Source: Flavobacteriales bacterium (GTDB taxonomy: Bacteria > Bacteroidota > Bacteroidia > Flavobacteriales_F > PHOS-HE28). Taken from it: a stretch of 64,000 nt of DNA. Made by a program: the position numbers and the translations under genes. Where the stretch lies: contig JANOPI010000575.1 of the NCBI GenBank assembly GCA_031421755.1, positions 891 through 64,890 of the forward strand, given 5' to 3'. The notes beneath the pieces were generated by a model. That model was not told where the DNA came from. It did no database searches and saw only the letters and a list, made by a program, of their open reading frames with translations. Shown here one piece after another: positions 6,227 through 29,103 of the stretch. Within the stretch, counting starts at the first letter, position 1; every line of letters begins with the position of its first letter.

Positions 6227-6256
6227 ACAGCAGCCCTCCGGGGCTGTTGTCGTTTT
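6227..6256 (+). terminator. rho-independent terminator-like hairpin after the tube gene
   Basis: acagcagccc-tccg-gggctgttgt (10-bp stem with one G-U pair, 4-nt loop), followed by cgtttt. Confidence 0.6.
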
Positions 6257-6398
6257 CAATACCTTCGGTGGACCTTAACACTCACCAACACCAGCAAACC
6301 GACTATGGTATAACGAAGGCTGCACGCACTCTTGAACCTGTGACAACACACACCCGCAACGGTGTGCGTTGTTGCTTTCAACAGGCACTGGTAGGAAA

Positions 6399-6407
6399 AA
6401 GTCACTT
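6399..6407. repeat. AAGTSACTT palindrome copy (aAAGTCACTTg), intergenic
   Basis: Read directly. It lies about 40 nt upstream of the lipoprotein ATG. Confidence 0.9.
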
Positions 6408-6435
6408 GACCGCGTGCGGATGTCTGGGCGGATCC

Positions 6436-6443
6436 TACATTTG
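6436..6443 (+). promoter_or_regulatory. TACATTTG, a perfect TAnnTTTG (-7 box-like) motif
   Basis: It ends 4 nt before ATG 6448. No well-spaced -33 TTTG is present, so this is weak. Confidence 0.25.
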
Positions 6444-6447
6444 GGCC

Positions 6448-10900: not shown

Positions 10901-12432
10901 ATTTGTGGGACACGTTGAGGGACAAGGCCACCACTGCCTGGAACGCCATACGTGAAGGCGTGCAGCGGGTAGGCCCAGCGATCACCAGCTTCATGAGCGG
11001 AGTGAAGTCCCAGGGCGTGGACCTGTGGAACGCATTCCAGACCGGTACACTGTGGGACACCCTGAAGAGCAAGGCCACCAGCGCATGGAACGCTATACGC
11101 GACGGCGTGGCCAGTGTGAGCCCTGTTGCAGCCGGCTGGATGGATACGTTGAGGGACAAGGCCGTGAGCCTTTGGAACGCGTTCGAGTCCGGTAGTATTT
11201 GGGACACCCTGAAGAACAAAGCAGCGGCCGCGTGGGATACCATCTCCGGCGGCATCGCCAAGGTGAGCCCCACCCTTGCAAGCTGGATGAACAGCGCCAA
11301 GTCACAAGCCGCGGATCTGTGGGCAGCGTTCCAGAACGGTACGCTGTGGGACACCCTGAAGAGCAAGGCCAGCTCCGCACTGGCCGCGATAGGGGAACCG
11401 CTCAACGGTATCCGTGAGCGGATCGTGGGCCTGTTCCAAAGCGGTCAAGCCTGGGCCGGTGAGTTCTTCAGCACGCTGCGCAATGATCCGGGTGCGGCCT
11501 GGGACATGCTGAAGGAAGCGGCATCGAGCGTGGCCACCCGTGTGCGTTCGGCGTTCAGTGATATGAAGGACGCCGTAGGCGGATGGGTTCGTACCTCCAT
11601 GCCCTGGCTCGCTGATCTGTGGGAGAGTGCCAAGGCCGGCGCAGCTTCGATGTGGGCAGGTGTTACCGGTGCGGTGTCCGGTATGCGCGCCGCGTTCGAT
11701 GGCTGGATCCAAAGTGCCCTTGCATGGACCAGCTCACTGTGGGCATCGGTCACCTCGGGAGCTGCTGCCATGTGGTCCAGCGTAACGGGTGCCGTCTCCG
11801 GCATGGCCAGCGCGATCGCCTCCTGGATCGGTGGAGCGATCACCACGGTATCGAATGGCTTCGCGGCAATGGGCAACGCCATCTGGTCCTGGATCACCAA
11901 CGCGGTGAGCTGGGTGTCAAGTGGCTTTGCCGCCATGTACAACGCGGTGACGGGCTGGGTGAACAGCGTGATAGGCTGGATCACTCAACTGCCTTCAGCG
12001 ATCTACAACGCCGGCGCGAACATGGTGACCGGTCTATGGGACGGGATGAAGAGCAAATGGGCAGCGTTCAAGGACTGGCTGGCCTCCGCTGTTGGTGGCA
12101 TACCACTGCTGGGCTCCGCGCTGAAGTTCATGACCGGTGCGGCGGGTTGGGCCGGCGGCTTGCTCGGTGAACAGGGCAAGGAAGAACAGGGCACCGCCGG
12201 CGTTGCCGAAACGGGACCGAAGCGGGCCGATCTGTTGGGCGCTACTGCACAGAACAACGTGAACAAAGCACGCGGTCCGATGCTTCAGCCGGCGATGGCA
12301 CAGAGCCCAGGCGCTGCGCTCATGCAACCGGTTATCCACAGGACGAACATCATCAAGATCGGTGACCGTGAGATGGGCCGCTTCATGGAGGATGAACAGG
12401 AGGACGGTCTGTCCCGCAACAACGGTATCTGA
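7954..12432 (+). CDS. tail tape measure protein
   Basis: 1492 aa. TMP core-like region (FAKTTPFEIGP..LLGNVAAGVGMDIKELAELYGK..NRGIPILEAL), hydrophobic segments, and Trp-periodic Ala/Gly-rich repeats. Its position after the chaperone fits. Confidence 0.9.
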   Translation: MPLLGGLSGGNLAMGVAFQLKDEFSGTAAGIQKSMQQLDQYTDRMAQKIDTAMTQIRTGFAMAAAGAVLLAPSFMALEKAGEYEQLEVAMETMLKSREKAQALMREMDQFAKTTPFEIGPVRDSGRMLVAFGKQAEQVVPTLKLLGNVAAGVGMDIKELAELYGKNLQQPNLAMRDIWQMTNRGIPILEALAEVMGVQKDKIREMVEAGQVGVPQMEAAFRAMGEGTGRFAGLMGKQALTMKGMWSNALDSISLGLQSWGMQLLPLAKKVIGALQGILDAFRAFAESKVGSFILKSVTILGALLVVGGLVLILMGGMRFAVYKMAGAFGDMTKATILNTIAQKGMIAGLRQMAVAAWASIGPYALIAAGIMALVFIIKKAKDMLQSANPIIFAFGAALMFAMGPIGWIIGGIVLLKRAVSEFNKVGEDGSGLKGGFIGVLQKIGGIIQGVIELWRSWNEETQTFSLGESMYKKLEKMGLLQTVLNIGTYIARIKAFLVGVKEGFMEVMNWGKRAIMSIWNALQPAEEKFTKWGTLVDKATSSLERWKKAGKVIGIVLGVALLGLISLFVVLGIVSVIALAAIIIGMALIIAPFILLGYILKKIWDGLVYLYEAALQVWRGFKLFVSDAVTWTTELWASITSGVRGMWDSVVSAFDAMTSAVGNFITSAGNWFAGLWEAIKQGPSAVWDYMVAGAATAWAYITNMFTAIGATISGWVASATGWFSGVWDGITRGASALWSDIVDGAMGILAPILATFAAIGAAVSGFVQGALAWAGSLWASLTGGAAAAWDYLTSGASGALDAITGLFSGIGDTISGWVDSATAAVGGLWDRIKSGQAWDDFVNAHVRAKDSLVSAVRDMDNATGGYLQRGVAGLRQLWAAVENGTIWSTLKDRAVATWDAIRNGVEQVSPTVARFMDGVKSQGRDLWNAFQTGNLWETLKAKAGSAFDTIVGGVAKVSPTLASFITNVKDQAVGLWDAFRAGNLWDTLRDKATTAWNAIREGVQRVGPAITSFMSGVKSQGVDLWNAFQTGTLWDTLKSKATSAWNAIRDGVASVSPVAAGWMDTLRDKAVSLWNAFESGSIWDTLKNKAAAAWDTISGGIAKVSPTLASWMNSAKSQAADLWAAFQNGTLWDTLKSKASSALAAIGEPLNGIRERIVGLFQSGQAWAGEFFSTLRNDPGAAWDMLKEAASSVATRVRSAFSDMKDAVGGWVRTSMPWLADLWESAKAGAASMWAGVTGAVSGMRAAFDGWIQSALAWTSSLWASVTSGAAAMWSSVTGAVSGMASAIASWIGGAITTVSNGFAAMGNAIWSWITNAVSWVSSGFAAMYNAVTGWVNSVIGWITQLPSAIYNAGANMVTGLWDGMKSKWAAFKDWLASAVGGIPLLGSALKFMTGAAGWAGGLLGEQGKEEQGTAGVAETGPKRADLLGATAQNNVNKARGPMLQPAMAQSPGAALMQPVIHRTNIIKIGDREMGRFMEDEQEDGLSRNNGI
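10582..11463 (+). repeat. six tandem 147-bp (49-aa) repeats inside the tape measure gene
   Basis: LW(N/D)AFxxGxxWDTLKxKAxxAWxxIxxGVxxVSPxxxxxxxxxKxQxxx units start exactly at 10582, 10729, 10876, 11023, 11170 and 11317. The last unit is diverged. Confidence 0.85.
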
Positions 12433-12910: not shown

Positions 12911-13237
12911 ATGGCAGACAATACCACCATCGAGCTGCGCCGTACGAACCTGTACGGCAACGCGTTCTTCCTCCAGTTCCCCGATGGCACCCAGCAAGTG
13001 GTGCGCGAGCGCGTGGAGTGGGTGGGGGGCACCGGTGACCAGTACCACACCGTGCTTGAAGGTGACGAGCTGCCGTTCATCGCCTGGAAATACTACGGAC
13101 GCCGTACCGAGAACGCCGGAGAACTGTGGTGGGTTATCGCCGACGTGAACGGCATCGTGAACCCCTTCGGCATGGATGAACTGATCGGCACTCAGCTTTT
13201 GATCCCGAACTATGACAAGTTCCAGATGCGGCTATGA
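12911..13237 (+). CDS. LysM-like tail protein (P2 gpX-like)
   Basis: 108 aa. YHTVLEGDELPFIAWKYYG..WWVIADVNGIVNPF..GTQLLIP is a LysM-like motif. Confidence 0.6.
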   Translation: MADNTTIELRRTNLYGNAFFLQFPDGTQQVVRERVEWVGGTGDQYHTVLEGDELPFIAWKYYGRRTENAGELWWVIADVNGIVNPFGMDELIGTQLLIPNYDKFQMRL

Positions 13238-14499
13238 GATCCCCGTTTCTCCGTGTGTACCTGGGTAAGCAGGACGGGAAAGAGATCTCGTCCTGGGTGC
13301 GCTCGTTGAAGTTCGAGGACTCGATCGGCAAGGACAACAAGGTGACCATCTCCGTGTTCCAGCGTCACGTGATGGACCTGCTGGATGACAAAGTGATCAA
13401 GGAGAAGGGTGAGGTGTGGTTCCAGTTCGGGTTCGTGGAAGGGGCCGCCAGTGAGATGCACCGCGCCAAGATCGCGGACGTGAACGTGACCTATGGGGCC
13501 ACCATTGACCTGGAGATATCGGCGGTGGACAAGGGGAACATCATGAAGAAGTCCACATCCACCAAGGTGTGGAGCGGAAAAACTACCAAGCAGATAGTGA
13601 CCGAGATCGCTCATCGGTACGGTATGGAGGTGGAGATGAACTTCAACGGGCAGGTGTGGAAGAGCCTTCCACAAGGCAACAAGAACGATCTGGAGTTCCT
13701 TCAGTTCCTGGCCAAACGTGAAGAGGGCGGCAAGTACAGCGTGTTCGTGCGCGGTAACACGCTGTACTTCGTTGAGCGTGGGCTGTCAAAGACGAGCACC
13801 TGGACGATCATCTACAAGCAGGACAGTGAGCTGATCAGCTTCAAGCCACGGTGGAAGGAACAGGCCGCGAGCGGTGCCCCGAACAGTGTGACCGTTGCCG
13901 GCAACAACGTGGCCGGCGAAGAGGTGAACCCGAAGAAGGACCAGAGCGATACCAGCCTGGGGGAAAAGCGGGTGATCATCGACACCAGCGCCAACGTGCT
14001 GGGCATCGTGCAGGACGGTGTGGCCACCGCGTACACTGGCCACGATGCCAACGGTGAGGTGACCAGTGTATCGCCGGCCTCCGCGATCAAGACCACGGGG
14101 AAGAAGATCGTGACCGCCGTGGAGAACGCCGGCGAAGCCAAGGCACTTGGCCACCATGAACAGAACAAGGCGGCGCTGAAAGTCTTGACCGCTACCCTGG
14201 AGCTGAACGGGAACGCGCTGATCAAGCCGGATCAGATCATCACCATCGGCGGGGTACACCCATCGCACGAGGGGAACTGGTACGTGGAAAGCATCACGCA
14301 CTCCCTGGACGGCAACAAGTACACGTGCAGCCTGGAGCTGAACCGCAACGCGAGCAAGACGGGCAAGACCGAGGCGAAGAAGAAGAACAAGACCGAGGGT
14401 CCGGAACAGCCGAAGAACGTGACCAAGAAGGTGATCATCGACGCCAGCACGGGCAAGCCACTTGGTTTGCAGAGCGGTGACAACGTGAGCAAACTATGA
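13234..14499 (+). CDS. baseplate hub protein (late control gpD / VgrG-N-like)
   Basis: 421 aa. GKTTKQIVTEIAHRYGMEV..NDLEFLQFLAKREEGGKYSVFVRGNTLYF is gpD-family-like. Synteny fits. Confidence 0.7.
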   Translation: MRSPFLRVYLGKQDGKEISSWVRSLKFEDSIGKDNKVTISVFQRHVMDLLDDKVIKEKGEVWFQFGFVEGAASEMHRAKIADVNVTYGATIDLEISAVDKGNIMKKSTSTKVWSGKTTKQIVTEIAHRYGMEVEMNFNGQVWKSLPQGNKNDLEFLQFLAKREEGGKYSVFVRGNTLYFVERGLSKTSTWTIIYKQDSELISFKPRWKEQAASGAPNSVTVAGNNVAGEEVNPKKDQSDTSLGEKRVIIDTSANVLGIVQDGVATAYTGHDANGEVTSVSPASAIKTTGKKIVTAVENAGEAKALGHHEQNKAALKVLTATLELNGNALIKPDQIITIGGVHPSHEGNWYVESITHSLDGNKYTCSLELNRNASKTGKTEAKKKNKTEGPEQPKNVTKKVIIDASTGKPLGLQSGDNVSKL

Positions 14500-15200
14500 G
14501 CCTGCTGCACGACTTCCGCATGATGCTGGCCAACTACGGGCTGGAACACTTCAACCGGTACTATGCTACCTACAAGGGTGTAGTGGTGGACAACAAGGAT
14601 CCGGAGTTCATCGGTCGGCTCATGCTGAAGGTCACCCAGGTGTGGGGGAACGATATCCACCGCTACTGGGCACCGAGCGTGGGCATGCCGGCGGGGGCCA
14701 AGGGCCTGGGCCTGTTCATGGTGCCGAACGTGGGGGATATCGTCTGGGTCAGGTTCGAGGCCGGTGATATACGTTTCCCCATCTGGGAGTATGGACCGCT
14801 CACCAGGGCGAAGACATCCATCCACGCCAAGACAGGTCACCCCGATCAGGCCAAGGCCGTGGTGCTTCAGCACACCAACGGCTACCGCATCGTGATGGAT
14901 GATGTGAAGAAGAAGATCGTGATCGAAAGCGGTTCACTGCACATGATCATCGACGGCCTGACCAACAGCATCCGGTTCGAGAGTACCACCGGGGTGGCGA
15001 TCCAACCCGCTGTGCTGGGAACTACTCTTGTGGCTGACCTGAACGAACTGATAGCCGATATCGGGATGATAGCGGGCATCGTGGTCCCTGGGGCCAGTGC
15101 CACGTTGCCCATCGCTTCCTCCCCGCAATTCGCACCTTTGGTGGCGAAGTGGGCCGCCAAGTTCCCGCTCGCACTCAGTCAGATAGTGAAGCTCCAATGA
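14496..15200 (+). CDS. baseplate spike / assembly protein V (gp5 OB-fold-like)
   Basis: 234 aa. YKGVVVDNKDPEFIGRLMLKV..PNVGDIVWVRFEAGDIRFPIW is a typical gpV/gp5 N-terminal motif. Confidence 0.7.
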   Translation: MSLLHDFRMMLANYGLEHFNRYYATYKGVVVDNKDPEFIGRLMLKVTQVWGNDIHRYWAPSVGMPAGAKGLGLFMVPNVGDIVWVRFEAGDIRFPIWEYGPLTRAKTSIHAKTGHPDQAKAVVLQHTNGYRIVMDDVKKKIVIESGSLHMIIDGLTNSIRFESTTGVAIQPAVLGTTLVADLNELIADIGMIAGIVVPGASATLPIASSPQFAPLVAKWAAKFPLALSQIVKLQ

Positions 15201-15583
15201 TCCAGCAAGACTACCTCGGTATCGGCCTGCGTGACCCGCTGCTGTTGCAGAACGGGGAAGGTGTGACCATCACCGGCGCGGGGTTGATCGAACAAAGCAT
15301 CGGCCGCATCCTGGGTGAACAGGTGGGGGAACGGTTCTTCGGTTACGACTTCGGATCCAGGATCGACGAGATACTGTTCGAGCCCAACGACGAGGTGCTG
15401 ATCGACCTGTTGCAGATGTTCGTGTTCGAGGCCGTGGCACGGTGGGAGAAGCGAGTGAAGATCGACACGGTGAACATCGTGCAGGACGGAGCCAAGATCT
15501 ACGCGGAGGTAACCGTGCTGATCCTCGGTAGCAATGAGATCACCACCTACGTGTACCCCTGGTACCGCAAACTGATGGACTGA
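15197..15583 (+). CDS. baseplate wedge protein, gp25/gpW-like
   Basis: I placed the start at ATG 15197 (ATGA overlap). GAGLIEQSIGRILGEQVGERFFGYDFGSRIDEILFEPND is a GPW_gp25-like motif. Confidence 0.75.
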   Translation: MIQQDYLGIGLRDPLLLQNGEGVTITGAGLIEQSIGRILGEQVGERFFGYDFGSRIDEILFEPNDEVLIDLLQMFVFEAVARWEKRVKIDTVNIVQDGAKIYAEVTVLILGSNEITTYVYPWYRKLMD

Positions 15584-17244
15584 TGGCACTACAGAACCCG
15601 TGGGTGGGCTACTTCACCCGGACATACGAGCAGATCAAGGATCAGGTGCTCACCACCATGCAAACGCTGGTGCCTGAGATCACGGACCACACGCCCAGCA
15701 ACATCTTCGTGAAGATGGTGGGTATCTGGGCCGGCATCGCCGAAATGCTCGGGTACTACGTGGATGCCATGGCGCGCGAGGCATACATCGGAACCTGCCG
15801 CCGGCTATCGAGCGCCCTGGCCATCGCCAACCAGCTTGACTACCGCGTACACGCATGGGTAGCGGGAACCGGTGAAGTGACCTTCAGCTCTGACCTTCCG
15901 GTGACGGCTGACTTCCTGATCCCCGCCGGCACCCAGGTTGAAACTGCGGACGGCGTTCGTTTCTCTACCACCCAGGACTGCACGATCCTCAACGGCCAGT
16001 CAACGGTGGATGTACCGGTAAGGCAGCATAGTGATGTGCTCCTGATCGCGTCCTTCGTGGCCACCGGTGCAACGTTCCAGGAATACCAACTGCCTACGGA
16101 CCTTGCGGACGGACAGGTGACCGTGAAGGTGAACGGCATCACATGGCTGGGACAAGAAACCCTGGCCTACAGCATCGCCGGCTCGCGCCACTACGTGCAA
16201 ACGGTGAACCGCAACGAGATACCCGTGGTCCGTTTCGGTGATGATGTGATGGGTGCAGCTCCACCAACGGGCCAACCGATCCAGGTGTATTACTACCAGA
16301 CCCAGGGTGCGGACGGCAACGTAGGTCAGGGGTCCATCATCACTATCGTTACCCCGATCGGAGTGCCTTCAGGTGCTACCAACGTGTTCGTGACCAACCA
16401 AGTGCGCGTCTCCGGTGGAACGTTCAACGAAGACCTGGAGAGCCTGCGCAAGCGGATCCCCATGTCCCTGCGCGTGATGGACCGCGCTGTGACCCGTCAG
16501 GACTACATCGATAGCGCGGAGCTGGTGGACGGTGTAGCAAAGGCCGGTGTGGTGTACGAGTGCGGCAAGACGGTGGACATTTACATCGTGCCCGAAGGCG
16601 GAGGTATCGCCAGCGATGCGCTGTGCTCTGACACGTTCGACTACCTGGATCCGCGGCGAATGATCACCACCCAGGTACGCGTGTTCCCCGCCGGTGAGGA
16701 CCGGACCACGATCCTGATGGACCTGCACGTGTTGCCGGGGTACAACGTGGCCTTCGTGGTGTCCGAGGTGAAGGCGGCACTGGCCCTGTTCCTGAGCTAC
16801 CAGAACCAGGAGATCCAAGGTGCGCTGTACCTCTCCGATCTGTACGAAGTGATCGAAGCGGTGGATGGTGTAGGCCATAGCTTGATCAACTCGGTGCTCG
16901 TGAAGCCGTACGCGCACCGCGTGCCGCCCACTACGCTCAACCTCAACTGGACGGTGAACGCGCTCTTCCCATCCACCCAGACGATCAAGTGGGATCTCAT
17001 AGCGATCAGCGGTACACAGTTCCACCTGATGCGCAATGGTGAGTTCTGGAGCACCGTAGATGTGGCCGTGGCCGAAGTCACTCCTGAGATCAATTTCACG
17101 ATCAACGCTGCGGCATACACCGTGGGCGATACGTGGCTCTGGTATACCTACCCGAGCAATATCGATGACGTGGGACAGGTCCAGCTTGAAGATCCGAGCA
17201 TCTTCGTTTCCCTCTTGACGGATATCACCATCATCACCGTCTGA
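15583..17244 (+). CDS. baseplate J-like protein (gp6/gpJ family)
   Basis: 553 aa, directly after the gp25-like gene and before the gpI-like gene. It starts with a TGATG overlap. Confidence 0.7.
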   Translation: MALQNPWVGYFTRTYEQIKDQVLTTMQTLVPEITDHTPSNIFVKMVGIWAGIAEMLGYYVDAMAREAYIGTCRRLSSALAIANQLDYRVHAWVAGTGEVTFSSDLPVTADFLIPAGTQVETADGVRFSTTQDCTILNGQSTVDVPVRQHSDVLLIASFVATGATFQEYQLPTDLADGQVTVKVNGITWLGQETLAYSIAGSRHYVQTVNRNEIPVVRFGDDVMGAAPPTGQPIQVYYYQTQGADGNVGQGSIITIVTPIGVPSGATNVFVTNQVRVSGGTFNEDLESLRKRIPMSLRVMDRAVTRQDYIDSAELVDGVAKAGVVYECGKTVDIYIVPEGGGIASDALCSDTFDYLDPRRMITTQVRVFPAGEDRTTILMDLHVLPGYNVAFVVSEVKAALALFLSYQNQEIQGALYLSDLYEVIEAVDGVGHSLINSVLVKPYAHRVPPTTLNLNWTVNALFPSTQTIKWDLIAISGTQFHLMRNGEFWSTVDVAVAEVTPEINFTINAAAYTVGDTWLWYTYPSNIDDVGQVQLEDPSIFVSLLTDITIITV

Positions 17245-19433
17245 TGCCTACGTTCCAGTCCCGCATCTTCAACCTGTTCGGCCGGTACGATAAACGTACC
17301 GACACCTATAAGAACGGTGCCGGCAAGGGACTGAACGAACGCTTCCAAGAGTCCATCGGGAAGAGCATCGATGATGAACTGATGGGACTGATCGATCAGT
17401 TCCTGGCCAACACCATCGAGCCGCAGACGGTGTTCGATGAACTGCTTCCGTTGGCCGAGAGGATGCTGGGCTATGACGTGAAGAACCAGACCCTTCAGCT
17501 CGGGGAGACGGTCGCGTGGCATCGCCGGATCCTGGCGCACATGATCCGGTACTACCACATCAAGGGTACCAAGCGGTGCTATGAACTGCTGTTCGAGATC
17601 ATGGGCCTGGAGGTGATCATCGAAGAGTTCTGGACCCTGCCCACCTTCGATAGCAGCAACCCGGATCTGACCTTCGATAGCGAGGACCGCCCGCTCCTGG
17701 ACCTGGGCAAATGCACGCCGTGCTCGCGGTACGAGATCACCATAGTGGGCGGGCCGCCCTGGAGCGAGGTACAGGCCGGCGTGGACAGCATCATCGTGTT
17801 CAACGAACCGATCAACGCCTACCGTGGCCTGCTGGCATACAACGGGCAAGAGATCATCGATGATGATCCGCAAGGTGATGCGTGCCCCATCCCGAACTAT
17901 ACCATCACGATCGTGGACACCAACGTAGGTGCTGGCACGTTCGAGGTGCGCGTGCTTCTCAGTGGAACCCAGCCCGGACTGTGGACCTTCGGCGAAGGCA
18001 CCTACACGGTGAACAACGGGGCACCCATCGATATCGTGGGCCTCACTCCTGGCGGATCGGCCATAGACATCGGACCGTTCCCCGCCGGCACGATGATCGA
18101 TATCGCGCTGACCAACACCCAACGGCCGCTGTGCATCACGTACAGCAACAACCACACGTGGTACCCGCCTTGCCCAGTGCTGGATGTGGACGTGATCGTG
18201 GAGCCACCGTTGGTGTACGTCGAAGTAGCGAGCTTCCCTGCCGGCTTCGCCACGGACAGCCTGCGTTACTCGATCGATGGGGCTCCGCAGATCGAGGTAG
18301 CATTCGACGGTTCATCGATCGCTATCGGTCCGTTCCTGGAGGGTGGATCGCTGGAGATATGGATCAACAACTACCTCAACGAAGCGTGCGCGTTCCATGT
18401 CGGTCCGTTCATACTGCCGGCACAGCCGCCGGACATCATGGCATCGTTCGAGCTGTTGCCGGACTGTCTCACACTCACACCCGAGTACAGCATGGAGTGG
18501 ACGCTGTACCCATCTTTCCCCGGAGGCCCTGCGTTCATTCCGGGCATGTGCCGTTACCGTGTGAACAACGGATCCTGGATCAACTACGGCGTTGTGGTAT
18601 GGGGTCAAGTGATAACGATCGGTCCTTTCACCTCGGGCGACGAAGTGGATATCGAGGTGGCCAACACCCAGGTGCCCGCCAACCCGTGGCTGTATCACGA
18701 CTACGTGTATACGTGCCCATGTGAGATCACCGGCCGGTTCCCGACCCCGCCGATAGATGTGGAGTGGTTGGTACGTCCGAGCGACTACGCGGGCATGGTG
18801 GCCGGTACCATACCGATCGGGCAGAAGTTCTTCATGCACGATCATGACAGCATCACACCGGGCACTTCCCTACCGGAGCTGAACGTGGGAAGGCTGTTCA
18901 CGCGCGTGGCCATGGGTCACACCGATGCTGACTTCACCATCACGGATCTGGCCAACAATGAGCTGATCCGTGACCTGAACGCGGTGGGCACGCCGTATGA
19001 GTTCTATCAGGTGCGACAAGACACAGGTGGGACTTCGTTCTATGCCACCGATGGACGCAGTGGCAAGTACGGAGAGATCTACCTGTTCGGTGTGGGGCTG
19101 CTGGATCCTGGTCCTCCTGGCCCCACCACAAGCTGGCCACCAACGTCCGCCTACCTGGAGCAGTCGGTTCCATGGAACGGTTGGGATGATTGCCGGATCA
19201 TGGTGGTACAGTACACTGAGAACCCGGACTACAATGATCCAGGTGCGGTGTGGGTGGATGCTCCGATGCCGCCGGTTCCACCAGCGCAAGGGTTCGACTT
19301 CGATCCAAGCTGGACACCGTACGTAGGAGCGTTCAATGCGGACTTCCCAGTGACAGCCACCGGCCTGCGGGCCGCGTGGTACCGCAGTGCCATCTTGCAG
19401 GGATACAGCCGACCAGGAGCCGCAACAGCATGA
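17244..19433 (+). CDS. baseplate/tail protein I-like with a triple-repeat C-terminal extension
   Basis: The N-terminus (LPLAERMLGYDV..HRRILAHMIRYYHIKGTKRCYELLFEIMGLEV) is P2 gpI-like. The C-terminus has three ~90-aa modules, each ending in I(D/A/T)IGPF..G..(I/L/V)(D/E)I..(T/N/A)N. Confidence 0.65.
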   Translation: MPTFQSRIFNLFGRYDKRTDTYKNGAGKGLNERFQESIGKSIDDELMGLIDQFLANTIEPQTVFDELLPLAERMLGYDVKNQTLQLGETVAWHRRILAHMIRYYHIKGTKRCYELLFEIMGLEVIIEEFWTLPTFDSSNPDLTFDSEDRPLLDLGKCTPCSRYEITIVGGPPWSEVQAGVDSIIVFNEPINAYRGLLAYNGQEIIDDDPQGDACPIPNYTITIVDTNVGAGTFEVRVLLSGTQPGLWTFGEGTYTVNNGAPIDIVGLTPGGSAIDIGPFPAGTMIDIALTNTQRPLCITYSNNHTWYPPCPVLDVDVIVEPPLVYVEVASFPAGFATDSLRYSIDGAPQIEVAFDGSSIAIGPFLEGGSLEIWINNYLNEACAFHVGPFILPAQPPDIMASFELLPDCLTLTPEYSMEWTLYPSFPGGPAFIPGMCRYRVNNGSWINYGVVVWGQVITIGPFTSGDEVDIEVANTQVPANPWLYHDYVYTCPCEITGRFPTPPIDVEWLVRPSDYAGMVAGTIPIGQKFFMHDHDSITPGTSLPELNVGRLFTRVAMGHTDADFTITDLANNELIRDLNAVGTPYEFYQVRQDTGGTSFYATDGRSGKYGEIYLFGVGLLDPGPPGPTTSWPPTSAYLEQSVPWNGWDDCRIMVVQYTENPDYNDPGAVWVDAPMPPVPPAQGFDFDPSWTPYVGAFNADFPVTATGLRAAWYRSAILQGYSRPGAATA

Positions 19434-19984
19434 CCGATCAACCCGAAGCACCGAAGCAGTTCACCTGGAAGGGCATGGTGGAGCTGGTGAACACCTACAA
19501 GGTGCTCGCGGCCGTGCTCACCGCGTTGTCCGTGTTCATCGCATGGAACAACAAGCAGGTGACCGCCGGCACCATGACGGTGAAGGAGTTCGATGAGTGG
19601 AAAAAGACCGTGCCCACCATCGATCAGATGGACAGTGCCCTGGGCGCTAGGTTCGAGGAGCGTGATGCACAGCTACAGCAGCAGGGCCGCGTGTTCGTGC
19701 GCGACTACGTGCAGCCGATGATGGCCACCGATGAACAGGTCACCAGGGATATCTCGGGCCTGACTTCCACCATGCGCGATGTGATCAACGCACAGAACAG
19801 TGTGAGCAAGGACATGCGCGTGACCCTCCTGGAGCGCATGAAGCGCGATAGTATTGTGGAGGAGAACGCGCGCCTGAAAGCGGAGATGCGGGTGACCGCA
19901 ACGGTGGAGGAGATCATGAGGGAGATCAAGAAGGGACAGCCGACGGATCCCCCTAAAAAGCGCCGCAAGGACAAAGTAGAATGA
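19430..19984 (+). CDS. membrane-anchored coiled-coil protein
   Basis: Start at ATG 19430 (ATGA overlap). One TM segment (VLAAVLTALSVFIAW), a charged helical region, and a basic tail (PPKKRRKDKVE). Confidence 0.5.
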   Translation: MTDQPEAPKQFTWKGMVELVNTYKVLAAVLTALSVFIAWNNKQVTAGTMTVKEFDEWKKTVPTIDQMDSALGARFEERDAQLQQQGRVFVRDYVQPMMATDEQVTRDISGLTSTMRDVINAQNSVSKDMRVTLLERMKRDSIVEENARLKAEMRVTATVEEIMREIKKGQPTDPPKKRRKDKVE

Positions 19985-20448
19985 GAACCCTAGCCCTATT
20001 CTGCCTGTTGTCCGTGGTGGCATGCCGTACCAACCAGCAGGTGATCACACCCGACTGGGAGTGGACGGAAACCAAGTGGGAACGATGCAACTACGGGGAA
20101 GAGCGCCTGTTCCTCACGGGCAAGTTCCTGGATGCCGATACGGTGTACATCCAGGTATATCACGATGGGGAGAACGCCGTGGATCCGATCGTGGCTTACG
20201 GCACATTCCACATGGAGCTGGGGGAGTTCGCCCAGTACGAGATAGTGTTCACGGATACGTACAACAGGGAGAAGCGTATAAGCATACACGAACTGGGGGA
20301 TCGTTTGATCGAGTGGTACCCGCCGATGGAAATTGACTTCGACCGGCTGGGCAACTACATCCTGATCAAGCCGGACGCCAAGTTGCCACAGTATGCCGAG
20401 ATACATGTGGGGATGAGCAGAAAAGCTGGAACAACACTGCTGCACTGA
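19981..20448 (+). CDS. putative lipoprotein
   Basis: MRTLALFCLLSVVAC|RTNQQ gives a signal peptide plus lipobox Cys. ATGA overlap with the upstream gene. Confidence 0.55.
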   Translation: MRTLALFCLLSVVACRTNQQVITPDWEWTETKWERCNYGEERLFLTGKFLDADTVYIQVYHDGENAVDPIVAYGTFHMELGEFAQYEIVFTDTYNREKRISIHELGDRLIEWYPPMEIDFDRLGNYILIKPDAKLPQYAEIHVGMSRKAGTTLLH

Positions 20449-20474
20449 TCTAACCAAACCAAGACCGTGAAGCC

Positions 20475-21251
20475 GTGGGAGCCATTGATATCGCGTTTCA
20501 AGAACTGCTGATCTTCAAGGAAGCATTCCATGCGGCCAAGCAACGCTTCCTCGGGATCATGCCTGCGACCGCTGCCATGGAGGTAGCGTTCAAGGGCAAT
20601 TTCGTGTACTTCAAACCTCGCGACGGTATGGGAGGCGACTTCTACACCTTGCACCACAACGGTGAGACTATCCTTGTGGTGGCTGACTGTTCTGGCCACA
20701 GCGTGGAGGGCGCGCTGATGGCGATGATCACGAGCGGTGAGGTCGATAGCATTGTGAAGAGCCGGGGGATCACGGAGCCCCGAGACATCATCCGCTACCT
20801 CCACAAGAGCATGGTGCAACGGTGGGGTGAGCGCAAGCTGGGTGTGAGCATGGAGGTGTCCATCATCAACATCTCCAGCAACCATCGGCAAATGCGGTTC
20901 TGTGGGGCCATGCGGCCGCTGTACGTGGTACGCGATGGCAAGCTGATCCAGTATGAGAAGAGCAATATGAGCGTAGGCGATGAACGCTACAACGCCCAGG
21001 TGCGCGAGCTGGTCCAGCACGATATCGACCTGGAGTCCGGTGATCTGATCTACATGTTCACCGATGGCTACGAGACGCAGACCGGTGTGGGAGAAAAGCC
21101 ACTTGGCACCAAACGCTTCCGCGAGCTGATCGAGCAGGCCAGCATACTACCGATAGATGAACAGCGCCAGTTCCTGGATGACAAGCTGGAGGAGTGGCGC
21201 GGCAGACAACCTCAGCTTGACGACATTTGCCTGATCGCAGTAACCGTTTAG
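20475..21251 (+). CDS. PP2C-family (SpoIIE/RsbU-type) serine/threonine phosphatase domain protein
   Basis: GTG start. GGDFYTL..ILVVADCSGHSVEGALMAM..MFTDGYETQ..G..RF..QLDDICLIAVTV matches the SpoIIE-domain motif order. Confidence 0.7.
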   Translation: MGAIDIAFQELLIFKEAFHAAKQRFLGIMPATAAMEVAFKGNFVYFKPRDGMGGDFYTLHHNGETILVVADCSGHSVEGALMAMITSGEVDSIVKSRGITEPRDIIRYLHKSMVQRWGERKLGVSMEVSIINISSNHRQMRFCGAMRPLYVVRDGKLIQYEKSNMSVGDERYNAQVRELVQHDIDLESGDLIYMFTDGYETQTGVGEKPLGTKRFRELIEQASILPIDEQRQFLDDKLEEWRGRQPQLDDICLIAVTV

Positions 21252-21255
21252 AACC

Positions 21256-23055
21256 ATGGCACAAAGACGCTTTTTCCAGTGGCTGGATGATGACTTGACA
21301 CGGCTCATGAACCAGCGAGACGTGGGGCTGATCGAGCCCAGCGTGTACCGTGGCTTCGATGCTCCGGCGCTTCCCCCAGGCATGAACCTGATCCTGAGCC
21401 ACACTCCGGACTGGTACGGTCCGAACGGGGCCACTGAGAGCACGTACGATGAAACTCCTGGCGGGGAAACCAGCATCGGGGTACTGATGACGCGGCAAGG
21501 CGTGGTGGTCAAGGAGACGAACGCTATCAGCTTGCCCATCGCTCCGGGTGATGCGACCTATCCCCGGATCGATCGCATCGTGTGCCGGAGCAAGTACCTG
21601 TACGCCCCCGGCGGTGAGCCAGCGACATACGTTGTGTATACAGGGATCCCCTCGGTGAGCCCCACGGCACCGGTGTTGAGCTTCCCCTACCAGGAGATTC
21701 TCCTGGGTGAGCTGCGCGTGCCGGCGGGATGCACTTCGCTACAAGACGACGGGGTGGTATGGACGCGGAGCTATCCGGCACCGCTTGCCAACCAGCTCTT
21801 CACCATGTACATGAACAAGGTCCAGACCAGTGTGGACCTGAAGATGTTCGAGGAGATCGCGTTCCAGCGCAGCAGTGCCACCACACCGGACGCCACCACG
21901 ATCGACATCGATACGTTCGATCCTGTGACCCAGCTATGGGACGAAGCGAACGGTACAGAGATCATCGTGAACATCGGGGCGGAGGCCGCTTACACCTTCA
22001 ACCTGATCAACGCGAAGCTGCCACAGAGCCGGTTCTTCATACTGAAGTTCACCGGCATCGGCAGCAAGGTGGTCCAGTTCCACTATGACAACTTCCAGAA
22101 CGCGGAGCCGATGCACGATCCGCCCTGGAACAGTGGCGCTGTATCGCGCAAGCACCTGCGGGTGTACGATGGTGACACCCTGGCCATCATCGGCAACTCC
22201 AGCAACGGCACGGCGTGGAAAGTCTTGTGGCACCATTGCACCAAGACCCCGCGTGTCGATCGCCGCCTGACCATGGAGAACAGCGTCCTATGGGGGCGCG
22301 GAGGTGTGATGATCGACTCCGGCGGAGAGATCTATTTCGACTGGAAGGCGAACGTGATCGAGATACCTTGTACCGGTGCCCTGGACCTGTTCAGCTTGAA
22401 GCCTTCGGACGGGGTGGTACAGGAGAATATCCTACCGTTCGGTTATGAGATCCACGTGATACCGCGCTACACCGGGGCACAGATCCATGTGGACGTGTTC
22501 AAGCTGATCGCCGGCGGGAACATCATCATGCTGAACGACCTGCCCTTGCCGCTCCCATGGAACAGGCCCTTTACCCTGGTATCGGTACCATCACCGAACG
22601 GGGCGGCCGCTGCCAAGTGGATGCTGAAGGAGCACATGAGCGGCATGCGCCATGACATCACCACGAGCTACATGGCTGACGCGGGCAACGTGGAGACTTC
22701 AAGCGTGGGCTCTGTGACCTGGGATCCGGCCGTGGCCAACCCCCTGGTGTGCTACTGGATGGAAGGCGTACGGTGCCACATGTCCCTGAAGGTGGGGGTG
22801 GTGATCACCGGCGTGGTGAGCGATATCCGCTTCCAGCTCCCGCCCGGACTGACCGCGCGCAACGTGGGCAGCTCCGCCAAGTACGAGGTGTCCGGTTATG
22901 GTGAGCTACAGACCGGGGAGTTCCTGATCGTGGGCTCGGGCAACACCGGTGCCGGCAACTTCGGATGGGTGACCATGCCGGTGTTCGCCGTGTTCCCCCC
23001 AGGCACCTACACCGTGCGCGTGCGCATGGACATCGAAGTGTTCCCGTCCTTCTAA
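21256..23055 (+). CDS. putative tail fiber / receptor-binding structural protein
   Basis: 599 aa, the last gene of the late operon, followed by a strong terminator. The function is inferred from position only. Confidence 0.4.
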   Translation: MAQRRFFQWLDDDLTRLMNQRDVGLIEPSVYRGFDAPALPPGMNLILSHTPDWYGPNGATESTYDETPGGETSIGVLMTRQGVVVKETNAISLPIAPGDATYPRIDRIVCRSKYLYAPGGEPATYVVYTGIPSVSPTAPVLSFPYQEILLGELRVPAGCTSLQDDGVVWTRSYPAPLANQLFTMYMNKVQTSVDLKMFEEIAFQRSSATTPDATTIDIDTFDPVTQLWDEANGTEIIVNIGAEAAYTFNLINAKLPQSRFFILKFTGIGSKVVQFHYDNFQNAEPMHDPPWNSGAVSRKHLRVYDGDTLAIIGNSSNGTAWKVLWHHCTKTPRVDRRLTMENSVLWGRGGVMIDSGGEIYFDWKANVIEIPCTGALDLFSLKPSDGVVQENILPFGYEIHVIPRYTGAQIHVDVFKLIAGGNIIMLNDLPLPLPWNRPFTLVSVPSPNGAAAAKWMLKEHMSGMRHDITTSYMADAGNVETSSVGSVTWDPAVANPLVCYWMEGVRCHMSLKVGVVITGVVSDIRFQLPPGLTARNVGSSAKYEVSGYGELQTGEFLIVGSGNTGAGNFGWVTMPVFAVFPPGTYTVRVRMDIEVFPSF

Positions 23056-23493: not shown

Positions 23494-23729
23494 ACAAGAA
23501 AGAAGCGCGCACCGTGGGAGAGTTCCCCAGTGCCTTGGATGCCGCCGTGATCGCACGGTTCGGCAAAGTCACCCAGTGCAAGACCACGTTCCGACTGTTC
23601 GGAGACATGAACCACGTGACGACCTTCAAGGCCACTGGTCCCAAGCGCAAGGAGATCAAGCAGTTCATCGCCGGATGGATGGCGGGGAACCTGGAGCTGC
23701 GCGAACGTTTGCAACGCGCCAACGACTGA
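23490..23729 (+). CDS. hypothetical protein
   Basis: Internal ATG 23490 (MNKKEARTV..), with an ATGA overlap upstream and a TGATG overlap downstream. Confidence 0.5.
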   Translation: MNKKEARTVGEFPSALDAAVIARFGKVTQCKTTFRLFGDMNHVTTFKATGPKRKEIKQFIAGWMAGNLELRERLQRAND

Positions 23730-25417
23730 TGTTCGATCCCGAGCTGTACCCCACGCCGCCCGAGGTAATCAAGCGCATGCTGAAGCCATGGCAGCGCAGC
23801 GAGTTCTTTCCTGACCTGGACCTGGGGGATATTACCATCCTGGAGCCCAGCGCCGGCAGCGGGTCCATCTTGGACTACATCAAGGAGAACCATAGCTGGG
23901 CGCGCAACCGTGGCCCCAACGAACGCGGCCCGAAGCTGCACGCCATCGAGCACAACCCGGAACTGCGGGCAATGCTCACCGGCAAGGGGTACTCGGTCGT
24001 GCATGATGACTTCCTGGACTACCAGACCGATATCATCTACGATCTGATCATCATGAACCCACCTTTCAGCAACGGTGAACGGCACCTGTTGAAAGCGTGG
24101 GACATCCTGAAGACCGGCACCGTGGTGTGCTTGCTCAACGCGGAGACACTGAAGAACCCGCACACCATTTTCCGCAAGCACCTGTTGAAGCTGATCGGTG
24201 AACACGGCAAGGTGAACCTGATCGGGAAAGCGTTCGCCAAGGCCATGCGCAGCACCCAGGTTGACGTGGTGATGGTCACGCTCCACAAGAAGGAAGCTGC
24301 CCACGTGTTCGACTGGTGGAAGGATGATGCGTTCGCGGGGGAACCGGTCAAGGAGTTCCAGTTCGGCCCGGAGACGGTCAGCAACCAAGTGGCTTTGTAC
24401 GACTTCCTGGACGGGCTCGTTGGCCACTACGAACAGGCCAAGGGTGCGTTCGAGCGGTACCTGAAGGCACACTATGAGCTGGGCCACGTGCTCGCGGGGT
24501 TGGTGCCCGCCGGACAGAACATCGTGGGACAGGCCAAGGAAGCGAGCGGAGGACCAGCAGGCCAGAACGCGGTGTACCGTTCACTGCTACAGAAGGCGGC
24601 ATGGTCCCAGGTGATGAGCAAGACCAAGCTGAACAACTTCGCCACCGAAGGCGTGCGGCGCAACCTGGACGCGCTCACCGAGCAACAGGGCGGGATGGCC
24701 TTCACCAAGCCGAACATCCAGGCGTTGCTTGAAATGCTGTTCACCAACCGGCACGAGATCCTGCACCAGTCGGTTGTGGAGGTGTTCGACCTGATGACCA
24801 AGTACCACGACAAGAACCGGTGCCACTGGGAAGGATGGAAGAGCAACGATGCCTTCCAGGTCAACCGCAAGGTGATCATCCCGGACTACGGTGTACAATG
24901 GGAGCCGAAGTACGGCGGGGAGTTCAGCCTTGACTACCGTTTGGAGAACCGGCTGGATGATATCGATCGCGCCATTGCTTCGCTGGAGAACCGCCGACTG
25001 GATAGCCCCACACGGTTAACGCACCTGAAGCCTGAACCGCGTTGGAACGGTGACACCGGCAACAAGGAACCGGTGAAGCTGGTGACCATCGGCACGGCAC
25101 TGAAGCGCAAGTTCCGTGCGCTCGGAAAGGTCGGACACCTGAAGATGCAAGGCGGAGTGGACAACACGGCGGAGTCCGAGTATTTCTACCTCAAATTCTG
25201 GAAGAAAGGCACGGTGCATCTCGTGTTCAAGGATGAAGCCCTTTGGCAGTTGTTCAATCGCACGGCCGCCAAGGGCAAGAAGTGGCTCCCCATGGACCAC
25301 GAGCGTGAACCCGAACCTACGCAGACGAAAACGGATCGGGACTATGTAAAGGAGCTGGCCACAATCGCAGCGCTCAACCGCGCCCTGGCCTTGCAACCTG
25401 TTGAAGACGACTACTGA
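23729..25417 (+). CDS. N6-adenine-type DNA methyltransferase with a large C-terminal domain
   Basis: Start at MFDPELYPTP. Motif I is ILEPSAGSGSIL and motif IV is IIMNPPFS. The C-terminal half has no catalytic motif I can name. Confidence 0.75.
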   Translation: MFDPELYPTPPEVIKRMLKPWQRSEFFPDLDLGDITILEPSAGSGSILDYIKENHSWARNRGPNERGPKLHAIEHNPELRAMLTGKGYSVVHDDFLDYQTDIIYDLIIMNPPFSNGERHLLKAWDILKTGTVVCLLNAETLKNPHTIFRKHLLKLIGEHGKVNLIGKAFAKAMRSTQVDVVMVTLHKKEAAHVFDWWKDDAFAGEPVKEFQFGPETVSNQVALYDFLDGLVGHYEQAKGAFERYLKAHYELGHVLAGLVPAGQNIVGQAKEASGGPAGQNAVYRSLLQKAAWSQVMSKTKLNNFATEGVRRNLDALTEQQGGMAFTKPNIQALLEMLFTNRHEILHQSVVEVFDLMTKYHDKNRCHWEGWKSNDAFQVNRKVIIPDYGVQWEPKYGGEFSLDYRLENRLDDIDRAIASLENRRLDSPTRLTHLKPEPRWNGDTGNKEPVKLVTIGTALKRKFRALGKVGHLKMQGGVDNTAESEYFYLKFWKKGTVHLVFKDEALWQLFNRTAAKGKKWLPMDHEREPEPTQTKTDRDYVKELATIAALNRALALQPVEDDY

Positions 25418-28512: not shown

Positions 28513-28863
28513 ATGAACCTAACCAACGATGAACTGAACCGGATGGAACTGCTGGAGGATCGCCTGCTGGTAGTCGAACAAGAACTGCCCATCACTCCGG
28601 GTGGCATCCAACTGATCAGCAACGATCACAAGTGGGACATGTACGCCACGGTGATCAAGACCGGTCCAGGATACAAGCACATCGGAATGCCTGTTGAGGT
28701 CGGACAGAAGATCGTGATCGGCAAACAAGCTGGTCAGCCGGTTGTGTTCGATCTTCCCACCGGTGATGACGGCGAACTGAAAGAGATCCCCATGCTGGTG
28801 ATCCGCTTGTCCGCTGTCCTGGGGATCGTTGTCCCGAACAGTGAAACAACTCCCACTCAATAA
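28513..28863 (+). CDS. GroES/Cpn10-like co-chaperonin
   Basis: 116 aa. LEDRLLVVEQELPITPGGIQL..ATVIKTGPGY..PVEVGQKIVIGKQAG follows the Cpn10 pattern (DRVLV..T.GGI.L..G.V.AVG.G..V..GD.V). Confidence 0.6.
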   Translation: MNLTNDELNRMELLEDRLLVVEQELPITPGGIQLISNDHKWDMYATVIKTGPGYKHIGMPVEVGQKIVIGKQAGQPVVFDLPTGDDGELKEIPMLVIRLSAVLGIVVPNSETTPTQ

Positions 28864-28881
28864 CCCTCAGCGGGGGTGGTT

Positions 28882-28905
28882 AACCCTCCCCCTAAAGGGG
28901 AGGTT
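28882..28905 (+). terminator. hairpin after the GroES-like gene
   Basis: aaccctcccc-ctaaa-ggggaggtt (9 bp with one bulge), nested in an outer G/C-rich imperfect stem. No T-tract follows. Confidence 0.35.
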
Positions 28906-28954
28906 ACCCCCCTGCGTGTGTAGCAGGCGCGTATACACGGCGACCGGTATATTG

Positions 28955-29025
28955 TTAGGCATCGCCGCACGCGCACATACGCGACGGTCGGATAGGATGC
29001 TTGCCGATGCTTAGGCAGCGCCGCA
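28955..29025 (+). repeat. direct repeats TTAGGCA(T/G)CGCCGCA, two copies 56 bp apart
   Basis: Copies at 28955-28969 and 29011-29025. The same 240-bp spacer also holds GATGCTT x2 and several CGCATACGCG-like or ACGCGT/GTATAC palindromes. Confidence 0.5.
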
Positions 29026-29084
29026 TACGCGTACGCACGAGAGGACAAGTTTTGAACGATCCGACCAAAAGACGCCTTAGCGCA

Positions 29085-29103
29085 TACTATTGCACGCCCA
29101 GAC
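29085..29103 (+). promoter_or_regulatory. class-B downstream box only (B6)
   Basis: TACTATTG-cacgcccagac abuts ATG 29104. No TTTG lies at 17-23 nt upstream. Confidence 0.25.

Follow-up and report, generated by a model that had tools for sequence, protein, structure and literature searches.

What might a stand-alone protein phosphatase be doing among the tail genes of a bacteriophage? The question is raised by a stretch of contig JANOPI010000575.1 (positions 891 to 64,890; assembly GCA_031421755.1), analysed at its full length of 64,000 nucleotides and referred to here as the window. The window is that of a myovirus of virulent type with a genome of about 81 kb, and the locus in question comprises three co-oriented genes that follow the baseplate genes and precede a gene for a fibre-like protein of about 600 residues, their open reading frames (ORFs) being found exactly where an earlier note on this DNA had placed them:

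19430-19984, + strand: gene 1 (ORF-A), 184 residues, identified as an ORF
19981-20448, + strand: gene 2 (ORF-B), 155 residues, identified as an ORF
20475-21251, + strand: gene 3, stand-alone PPM/PP2C phosphatase, 258 residues, identified by ORF, Pfam match and fold

The description of the three genes as non-structural-looking, given in the same note, holds, in that two of the products are targeted to the cell envelope and the third is a cytoplasmic enzyme.

The phosphatase and its catalytic core

Gene 3 encodes a genuine PPM/PP2C Ser/Thr phosphoprotein phosphatase of the SpoIIE family bearing a SiaA-like catalytic domain, and the enzyme is predicted from its sequence and modelled structure to be catalytically competent. 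The Pfam SpoIIE family (PF07228), the only one matched, is recognized with an E-value of 8.4e-21 and a score of 75.2 bits against a cut-off of 25, with residues 63-257 of the protein aligned to positions 3-190 of the 192 in the profile. In a sequence search of the PDB, the PP2C domain of SiaA from Pseudomonas aeruginosa (6k4e) was the sole chain recovered at E <= 0.01 (E 9e-28). The SiaA model NF038263 was likewise the sole NCBIfam match (E 2.8e-41), its 141.8 bits standing against an equivalog cut-off of 700; the match covers model positions 425-656 of 658 only, which is to say the C-terminal 232 positions and the catalytic domain alone. A structure predicted with AlphaFold2 (AF2; pTM 0.76, mean pLDDT 70) again found 6k4e as its best match in a Foldseek search (E 3e-15, TM-score 0.74-0.77, about 24% identity in the structure-based alignment). 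That search returned 129 PDB matches at E <= 0.001, and all 50 of the matches listed are PP2C-type domains, the weaker ones including RssB, Rv1364c, SpoIIE and RsbX among other PP2C structures.

The motifs quoted in the earlier note, namely GGDFY, ADCSGHSVEGALMAM, FTDGYETQ (with its TDG) and LDDICLIAV (with its DD), are all present in gene 3 together with a DCSGH motif. Across ten aligned sequences, drawn from the phage clade and its nearest cellular relatives, residues D55, D71, C72, G74, H75, D197, G198, D249 and D250 are invariant. The active site of SiaA comprises D457, D474, G477, D600, G601 and D653, along with an unusual metal-contacting Cys residue, C475 (PMC7647112), and alignment by motif places SiaA D457/D474/C475/G477/D600/G601/D653 at gene 3 D55/D71/C72/G74/D197/G198/D249-D250. 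The PP2C/SpoIIE assignment made in the earlier note is thus borne out by Pfam, by the sequence match to 6k4e and by the fold match alike, and its metal-binding Asp residues are intact. From sequence and model, we infer that the protein is enzymatically active.

The layout of gene 3 is spare: an N-terminal helix (residues 3-25) leads directly into the catalytic core, with no sensor, transmembrane or HAMP region, and hydropathy analysis of the 258-residue protein reveals no transmembrane segment. The protein is not an orthologue of SiaA but has a SiaA-like catalytic core, and judged by its sequence it would be a SiaA-type sensor phosphatase pared down to its catalytic domain, with all input domains removed.

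The location of the three genes between baseplate and fibre genes might instead suggest that one or more of them encode a structural protein or a factor for assembling tail fibres, or that the PP2C domain is an inactive adaptor like RssB, inactive domains of this type being known and indeed present among the fold matches of gene 3. This explanation appears far-fetched, as the catalytic Asp and Gly motifs are all intact and invariant, no chaperone or fibre-assembly family is matched, and the proteins bearing a signal peptide or transmembrane segment are exported and cannot join tail assembly in the cytoplasm.

Relatives of the phosphatase and a candidate host target

SpoIIE/SiaA-type PP2C enzymes are essentially absent from known phages. 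A tblastn search with gene 3 of 50,697 GenBank phage records returned no match, no PHROG family matched the protein, and of the PP2C-fold proteins in BFVD, nearly all of them belonging to giant eukaryotic viruses or entomopoxviruses, a single entry is from a phage. In the literature that could be searched, no SpoIIE-type phosphatase is described in a phage, in agreement with the statement of the earlier note that it knew of no described role for such an arrangement. An exhaustive search with HMMER across 1.84 billion representative proteins yielded 31,427 relatives of gene 3 at E <= 0.001. All of the phage clade falls into one 50%-identity cluster, which scores 370 bits against 195 bits for the next match, and only 2 of the 149 best matches outside the clade are shorter than 300 residues. 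A collection of 5.8 billion proteins holds only five other members of the clade (62-73% identity), and a scan of JGI metagenomes added no further one.

Matches to SpoIIE in IMG/VR were considered as additional tail-operon cases and rejected; these are more distant, sensor-type proteins of 405-692 residues (TPR-transmembrane-PP2C or receiver-PP2C) on low-GC contigs. In two of these contigs (L009, positions 9017-10657, and L010; GC 29%), a 546-residue, transmembrane-containing SpoIIE protein has an ATP-dependent DNA ligase as its neighbour, and genes for a tape measure and a GTP cyclohydrolase lie close by. L009/L010 represents a genuine phage of 96-191 kb, so the carriage of such phosphatases by low-GC phages may be wider and as yet undescribed. 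A third contig (L020, positions 8912-10666; GC 27%) encodes a 584-residue protein with a signal peptide, a helical part, a transmembrane segment and a SpoIIE domain directly after a gp6-like baseplate gene, with genes for Metallophos and IS605 OrfB transposase proteins next in line. The helical part is TPR-like by eye, and Pfam matched SpoIIE only. This contig could represent a second tail-adjacent case or, because of the nearby IS605 OrfB, the edge of a prophage.

The cellular relatives of gene 3 are of a different build. In a scan of 185,579 species genomes, the 80 best were all from Bacteroidota, at 29-36% identity, and are mostly sensor phosphatases of 500-1100 residues, with 67 of 79 having at least 525 residues and a C-terminal PP2C domain. 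Their architectures follow a signal peptide-TPR-transmembrane-PP2C order, with the TPR region periplasmic, or a 7TM (seven-transmembrane) or multi-transmembrane-PP2C order. When neighbours were counted within five genes of the phosphatase, the most frequent families were SiaC (PF09345, E 1e-44) and the SiaB-like DUF6272 (E 5e-44), SiaB and/or SiaC adjoining the phosphatase in 8 of 79 loci (L061, L047, L055, L063, L079, L054, L026 and L027) and both doing so in 6. No other partner-switch genes, and no other recurrent signalling neighbours, were found next to the relatives. The genes beside these SiaB/SiaC pairs (for example at 8847-9398 and 9433-9804 in L061, and at 1786-2337 and 2343-2720 in L063) are heterogeneous, including a TerB-ABC transporter fusion (L061), a CYTH protein (L047) and an aminotransferase. 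No STAS-like protein was detected with jackhmmer among 690 neighbours of the 79 relatives, a search of limited sensitivity.

The relatives nearest to gene 3 in form are stand-alone Bacteroidota SpoIIE proteins of 273 residues (P0007-P0010; locus L003), which are of near-equal size, consist of a helix and a PP2C core, and carry the same invariant motifs at 33% identity, but which, unlike the phage gene, are chromosomal. With only about one third of residues identical, the phage gene did not come directly from these. In L003 (7776-13384) the 273-residue protein is genuinely encoded by a separate gene, flanked upstream by a secreted 654-residue TPR/beta-rich protein without a transmembrane segment and on its other side by a 772-residue AAA_15/AAA_21 (SMC_N) ATPase, with OmpA-domain genes on either side of the neighbourhood.

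We favour, tentatively and stopping somewhat short of calling it probable, an explanation in which a constitutively active phosphatase holds a SiaC-like partner-switch protein of the host in its unphosphorylated form. Made from the tail-gene transcript, the enzyme would stay in the cytoplasm and, because it has no sensor, would be constitutively active. It would dephosphorylate a host partner-switch phosphoprotein, most likely one of the SiaC (DUF1987) family that is phosphorylated by a SiaB-type kinase, and the switch would be held unphosphorylated whatever the sensor phosphatases and kinase of the host might do. We infer the constitutive activity, the identity of the substrate and the benefit to the phage.

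The template for this proposal is the SiaABCD module of P. aeruginosa, in which SiaB phosphorylates SiaC at Thr68 and SiaA reverses this (PMC7647112). An isolated PP2C construct of SiaA (residues 386-663) was purified, crystallised and characterised as the dimeric phosphatase acting on phospho-SiaC (PMC7647112), which lends support to the view that such a domain could be active without its sensor. The likeness to SiaA (6K4E) extends from its standing as the only significant PDB and NCBIfam match and the best fold match to the shared active-site pattern, including a D-C-x-G-H motif with the unusual Cys, and to the Bacteroidota relatives that are sometimes encoded with SiaB- and SiaC-family genes. 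The differences are that gene 3 lacks the two transmembrane segments and HAMP domain of SiaA and scores far below the equivalog cut-off, that no siaBCD genes were found in the phage, and that the enzyme is virus-encoded, with a probable host of another phylum.

A partner encoded by the phage itself was sought and rejected. Hidden Markov models of SiaB and SiaC found no match in a six-frame translation of the window, Pfam searches of 46 further window ORFs found no kinase, STAS or HATPase domain, and no GGDEF family occurs among the annotated window ORFs. The window leaves about 16 kb of the 80.7-kb genome uncovered, and the part of this remainder that makes up the head module, with the terminase and portal genes just upstream of the window, was examined as well and holds no kinase, STAS, SiaB or SiaC gene. 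Given the SiaB and SiaC neighbours of the cellular relatives and the lack of a partner in the phage, an input-less SiaA-like enzyme acting on a SiaC-type switch of the host is the most economical reading.

The earlier note had looked instead to the RsbU/SpoIIE type of partner switching, which governs sigma factors. The membership of gene 3 in the SpoIIE family stands, but the nearest characterised enzyme is SiaA, whose substrate is SiaC, and what SiaC controls is a diguanylate cyclase, not a sigma factor. With RsbU, RsbP and SpoIIE of Firmicutes (PF07228), gene 3 shares its family, its fold, the logic of dephosphorylating a small switch protein, and an N-terminal helix before the PP2C core comparable to their linker or switch region. 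None of these enzymes matches gene 3 in sequence at E <= 0.01, however, and gene 3 lacks their regulatory N-terminal domain; neither a STAS nor an anti-sigma kinase gene is found in the window, nor was STAS detected beside the nearest cellular relatives.

Several observations weigh against the proposed override of a host switch. The structural model is only moderate, with low-confidence regions (residues 48-54, 203-207 and 244-249) near the catalytic motifs, and two SiaA residues implicated in supporting a third metal or contacting the substrate are replaced in the phage clade (D604 by T201 and R652 by L248). The proposal presumes that the host has a SiaB/SiaC pair; among the cellular relatives, SiaB or SiaC is encoded within five genes of the phosphatase in only some 10%, and the phage clade does not group specifically with the loci so linked. 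No GGDEF gene lies beside the Bacteroidota SiaB/SiaC pairs examined. The likeness to SiaA may reflect a general subfamily of sensor PP2C enzymes in Gram-negative bacteria rather than substrate specificity, and a late structural operon would be an odd time for reprogramming host signalling.

The absence of a kinase from the phage also bears on a second explanation, in which the enzyme reverses abortive infection driven by a host Ser/Thr kinase (Stk2-, KKP- or TerY-P-like) so that infection can finish. This explanation, a form of which was raised in the earlier note, is speculative and unlikely, if a serious contender. Kinase and PP2C defence modules have a precedent in the prophage KKP module, where the PP2C protein PfpC is the antidote to the kinases and its inhibition triggers defence (PMC11341870). 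An orphan, input-less phosphatase without a phage kinase would fit an antidote supplied by the phage, and late expression would protect assembly and lysis. PfpC resembles gene 3 in that it is a phosphatase with the PP2C fold and comes from a bacterial virus, and it acts on host physiology (PMC11341870). PfpC belongs to PF13672, however, and is always paired with two Hanks-type kinases in a toxin-antitoxin and defence module of filamentous and other prophages, whereas gene 3 matches PF07228 only, has no kinase in the window and resides in the tail operon of a virulent-type myovirus. The SpoIIE/SiaA type to which gene 3 belongs is not the PF13672/PstP type usual with Hanks kinases, which appears among the weaker fold matches only. 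PADLOC returned no match to known defence or anti-defence families, kinase-based defence is not known in the Bacteroidota hosts of the phage, and the cellular relatives adjoin SiaB and SiaC genes, not Pkinase genes.

The tail operon and its envelope genes

The surroundings of the locus are those of a tail module, as the earlier note had recognized, with Phage_base_V, gp25 and Baseplate_J genes upstream and the sheath, tube and tape-measure genes further upstream:

4106-5668, + strand: sheath (profile search)
5720-6178, + strand: tube (profile search)
7954-12432, + strand: tape measure (profile search)
13234-14499, + strand: gpD-like hub (profile search)
14496-15200, + strand: gpV-type spike (profile search)
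15197-15583, + strand: gp25/W (profile search)
15583-17244, + strand: Baseplate_J (profile search)
17244-19433, + strand: 729-residue protein directly after Baseplate_J, in the gpI/fibre slot by position (ORF)
21256-23055, + strand: 599-residue fibre-like or virion protein (weak profile and tblastn matches)

Tetranucleotide ATGA overlaps join the 729-residue gene to gene 1 (19430-19433) and gene 1 to gene 2 (19981-19984). Gene 3 begins with a GTG codon at 20475, 26 nucleotides past the stop codon of gene 2, a start that agrees with relatives, whose proteins begin MSTIDIAFQ, and the 599-residue gene starts 4 nucleotides past the stop codon of gene 3. Of the translational coupling proposed in the earlier note, the part concerning the two ATGA junctions stands, but gene 3, given its 26-nucleotide gap, is operonic and not coupled by overlap. 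No promoter-like sites or + strand terminator-like sites were found within 14-23 kb. The GC content at third codon positions (GC3, 0.75-0.82) and the codon usage of genes 1-3 are the same as in the rest of the genome, which identifies the genes as long-term residents and rules out a recent horizontal insertion.

Placement in a tail-gene transcription unit without an internal promoter or terminator, directly upstream of the fibre-like gene in all four lineages sampled, could be taken to mean that virions carry the phosphatase in the tail or baseplate, or eject it along with the DNA, and that it acts within the first minutes of the following infection, an idea compatible with either a partner switch or a kinase as target. 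Early action would be biologically more sensible than late. Such delivery in the virion, also raised in the earlier note, is nevertheless speculative and improbable, for no family of virion proteins resembles the phosphatase, its neighbours include two envelope-targeted proteins, which cannot form part of a virion, and the PP2C domain of SiaA is a compact dimer that would make awkward cargo for a tail tube.

The locus is conserved. Three further lineages carry the phosphatase gene (L002, L006 and L004/L005), and the order in all of them is a fibre-like protein, gene 1, gene 2 where present, the phosphatase and the protein of about 600 residues. Neither an IMG/VR pattern scan with the baseplate J protein, which recovered no close relatives of the phage, nor the JGI scan added to these, and the synteny accordingly rests on four lineages, the window included. 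Identity to the window and the ratio of nonsynonymous to synonymous substitution rates (dN/dS) are as follows:

gene 3 (phosphatase): identity 61-73%; dN/dS 0.15-0.23
gene 2: identity 60-62%; dN/dS 0.07-0.14
gene 1: identity 47-48%; dN/dS 0.47
599-residue gene: identity 42-54%; dN/dS 0.39-0.41

The helicase of the phage, for comparison, shares 68% identity with its relatives. The dN/dS of gene 3 indicates clear purifying selection.

Genes 1 and 2 are regarded as encoding envelope-acting accessory proteins rather than signalling partners. Gene 1 has an N-terminal membrane anchor at approximately residues 24-38 (hydropathy peak 1.78), a long, charged helical or coiled-coil region and a basic C-terminal tail (KKRRKDKVE), as expected of the membrane coiled-coil protein described in the earlier note. 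Its topology is likely N-in/C-out, to judge from charge distribution only. The juxtamembrane and transmembrane motif LVNxYKVLAA...FIAWNN is kept in L002, L006 and L004/L005, and the remainder has diverged; the protein is an orphan for which no family, structure or other homologue was matched. Gene 2 is likewise an orphan, with no family matched in Pfam, PHROG, PADLOC or NCBIfam, and nothing meaningful came from comparing the sequences of both proteins, or those of the two large flanking genes, with the PDB.

A signal peptide is present in all copies of gene 2. Its assignment as a lipoprotein proved correct for this phage, where the lipobox LLSVVAC is real, but not for its relatives, whose signals are of the signal-peptidase-I type (...VAPAQDW or ...AFGQDW), the lipobox Cys being missing in P0013, P0014, L002 and L006. 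The AF2 model of gene 2 is poor (pLDDT 45), and too poor for a fold search; it places beta strands after the N-terminal signal helix, suggesting a secreted, beta-rich protein that would be lipidated in this phage. The L004/L005 lineage, in which the fibre-like protein encoded upstream is an unrelated one, lacks gene 2. Two ORFs on the + strand of the window carry a lipobox, gene 2 among them; in L002, L004, L005 and L006, none turned up anywhere. A second lipoprotein-like ORF on the + strand (MRSQMVLLSLALMSTSVLAC...; 6448-6867, inside the ORF 6247-6867), without a Pfam match, lies between the tube and tape-measure genes, in the slot expected for a tail assembly chaperone.

The architectures of the cellular sensor phosphatases, with their signal peptide-TPR-transmembrane-PP2C or 7TM-PP2C order, invite the thought that genes 1 and 2 replace the missing sensor and transmembrane parts and control or localise the phosphatase as a split trans-envelope device. 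Gene 1 precedes the phosphatase in every lineage, its most conserved part is the juxtamembrane and transmembrane segment, and the three proteins together would span periplasm or outer membrane, inner membrane and cytoplasm. A profile built from four gene 1 sequences was compared with the N-terminal regions of the 79 sensor phosphatases and with the best 150 relatives, and its best match (E 0.015, in a tiny database) is not significant; gene 1 was accordingly rejected as a detached transmembrane or linker part of a sensor phosphatase. Gene 2 is dispensable, moreover, and the part of gene 1 likely to lie in the cytoplasm amounts to 10-23 residues only. Nothing beyond adjacency ties genes 1 and 2 to the phosphatase, and the split device is highly doubtful.

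An anchored coiled-coil gene overlapping a lipoprotein gene also recalls the Rz/Rz1 pair of phage lambda, and genes 1 and 2 might be an i-spanin and o-spanin that disrupt the outer membrane at lysis, the phosphatase being an unrelated neighbour. The layout of gene 1, with its N-terminal anchor and charged coiled coil, could be that of an i-spanin, given the topology that charge bias suggests; gene 2 has its lipobox in this phage and its ATGA overlap with gene 1, and no lipoprotein candidate was found beside the endolysin. The lysis genes, however, are gathered 26 kb from genes 1 and 2, in a cassette at 46142-48056 that includes another anchored coiled-coil protein:

46142-46555, + strand: holin-like 137-residue protein with three transmembrane segments (hydropathy)
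46546-47211, + strand: 221-residue N-terminally anchored coiled-coil protein (hydropathy)
46938-48056, + strand: endolysin with PG_binding and Peptidase_M15_4 domains (domain matches)

The lipobox Cys is missing in all relatives, with no alternative lipobox ORF in the lineages searched, gene 2 is lost from one lineage altogether, and its mature product, of about 140 residues and beta-rich, is not a short, Pro-rich o-spanin. No PHROG spanin family was matched. On these grounds a spanin pair was set aside as the principal explanation of genes 1 and 2, and is quite improbable.

Genes 1 and 2 probably act at the cell envelope, whether in receptor masking or superinfection exclusion near the receptor-binding genes or in a role accessory to lysis. 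Llp of phage T5 and Cor of phages phi80 and N15 are receptor-masking or superinfection-exclusion lipoproteins encoded beside receptor-binding genes. Gene 2 resembles them in being small, exported, lipidated in this phage and situated between genes of receptor-binding type, but differs in having no similarity to any phage protein and in that its lipidation is not conserved. A masking or exclusion role is conjecture; it is in keeping with where the genes lie and with the lack of gene 2 in the lineage that has a different fibre.

The 729-residue protein contains three tandem repeats of about 90 residues around I.IGPF..G...I motifs (GPF at residues 277, 362 and 460) and has no Pfam, PHROG or PDB match; its C-terminal part is 51% identical in L006 and is replaced in L004 by one without detectable similarity. 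It is probably a baseplate-distal or receptor-binding protein, and the gpI-like label given to it in the earlier note agrees with its position but finds no profile match. For the 599-residue protein, the fibre label draws on a tblastn match of residues 83-171 to a putative tail fibre of Faecalibacterium phage FP_Lugh (E 5e-4) and on PHROG "virion structural" and "head protein" families over residues 80-173 (E about 1e-7), support that is weak. The gene lies directly downstream of the phosphatase in L002, L004 and L006. Directly after the tail module is a gene for a DUF4942 and methyltransferase-domain protein (23576-25417), which is the most conserved among the relatives (78-85% identity).

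The phage, its host and implications

The sizeable genes of the window are all on the + strand, the GC content is about 59%, and no tRNA genes occur in the 64 kb. Megablast against the 50,697 GenBank phage records found no match and hence no close relative, and the best match of the DNA polymerase in that set shares 31% identity. The replication module is full, profile searches having identified a DnaB-type helicase, a primase, a UvsW-like helicase, a UDG-exonuclease-PolA fusion, gp32, an SbcCD-like pair, a RecD-like helicase and RNase H. The fusion (35054-38797) is a 1247-residue protein that joins a UDG-superfamily domain, a 3'-5' exonuclease and a family A DNA polymerase. Genes for a Cpn10-like co-chaperonin and a DnaJ-domain protein (28513-29721) lie directly before the helicase gene, and an HU-like DNA-binding protein is encoded among the small ORFs of the window.

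The host is probably a high-GC member of Bacteroidota. No enrichment of Shine-Dalgarno sequences was found upstream of 43 gene starts (5/43, or 12%, against a background of 15.5%), and the leaders there are A/C-rich. Seven near-identical, promoter-like repeats of about 90 nucleotides occur on the + strand at 57030-63790, each ending about 25-30 nucleotides before an ATG, with the element TATATTTG at 57076, 57835, 59518, 60496, 61285, 62253 and 63743 and the consensus ctaacggcttgtcacttcgttCTTGACgg..tatatagaccctaTATATTTGtcc.gtcaacaacgaacaacacctaccacATG; these probably drive a block of small early genes at 57-64 kb. Promoters of the Bacteroidota type have -33 and -7 elements in the pattern cTTG-N19-TAnnTTTG. 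The repeats carry cTTG-N19-TATATTTG and fit both this pattern and TTGAC-17-TATATT. The absence of Shine-Dalgarno enrichment, the TAnnTTTG-type promoter repeats and the exclusive occurrence of the nearest phosphatase relatives in Bacteroidota together point to a host in this phylum, and the Bacteroidota connection drawn in the earlier note is upheld on the same grounds. High-GC members do exist among the cellular relatives, such as L039 at 63% GC.

In a fuller form of the proposal, a small clade of Bacteroidota myoviruses would have domesticated the bare core of a host sensor phosphatase, perhaps gated or localised by its own envelope partners or delivered in the virion, and turned it to seizing a SiaB/SiaC-type switch; put so fully, the account is unlikely. 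Phage protein kinases and a few phosphatases are already known to manipulate hosts or their defences, and if a kinase-based defence is what the enzyme counters, a new class of anti-defence would be at hand. The phosphatase offers a clean case, being sensor-less, under purifying selection, and provided with a characterised template in SiaA and an obvious candidate substrate family in SiaC. If a host partner switch is indeed the target, this would be the first phage found to override a bacterial partner-switch network with a PP2C enzyme of its own, and phages could be said to short-circuit Ser/Thr partner-switch signalling. The enzyme would then serve as a compact, constitutive tool for the sensor-PP2C/SiaB/SiaC networks that are greatly expanded in Bacteroidota and largely unstudied, and would give a handle on what the SiaC-family switches control in these bacteria.

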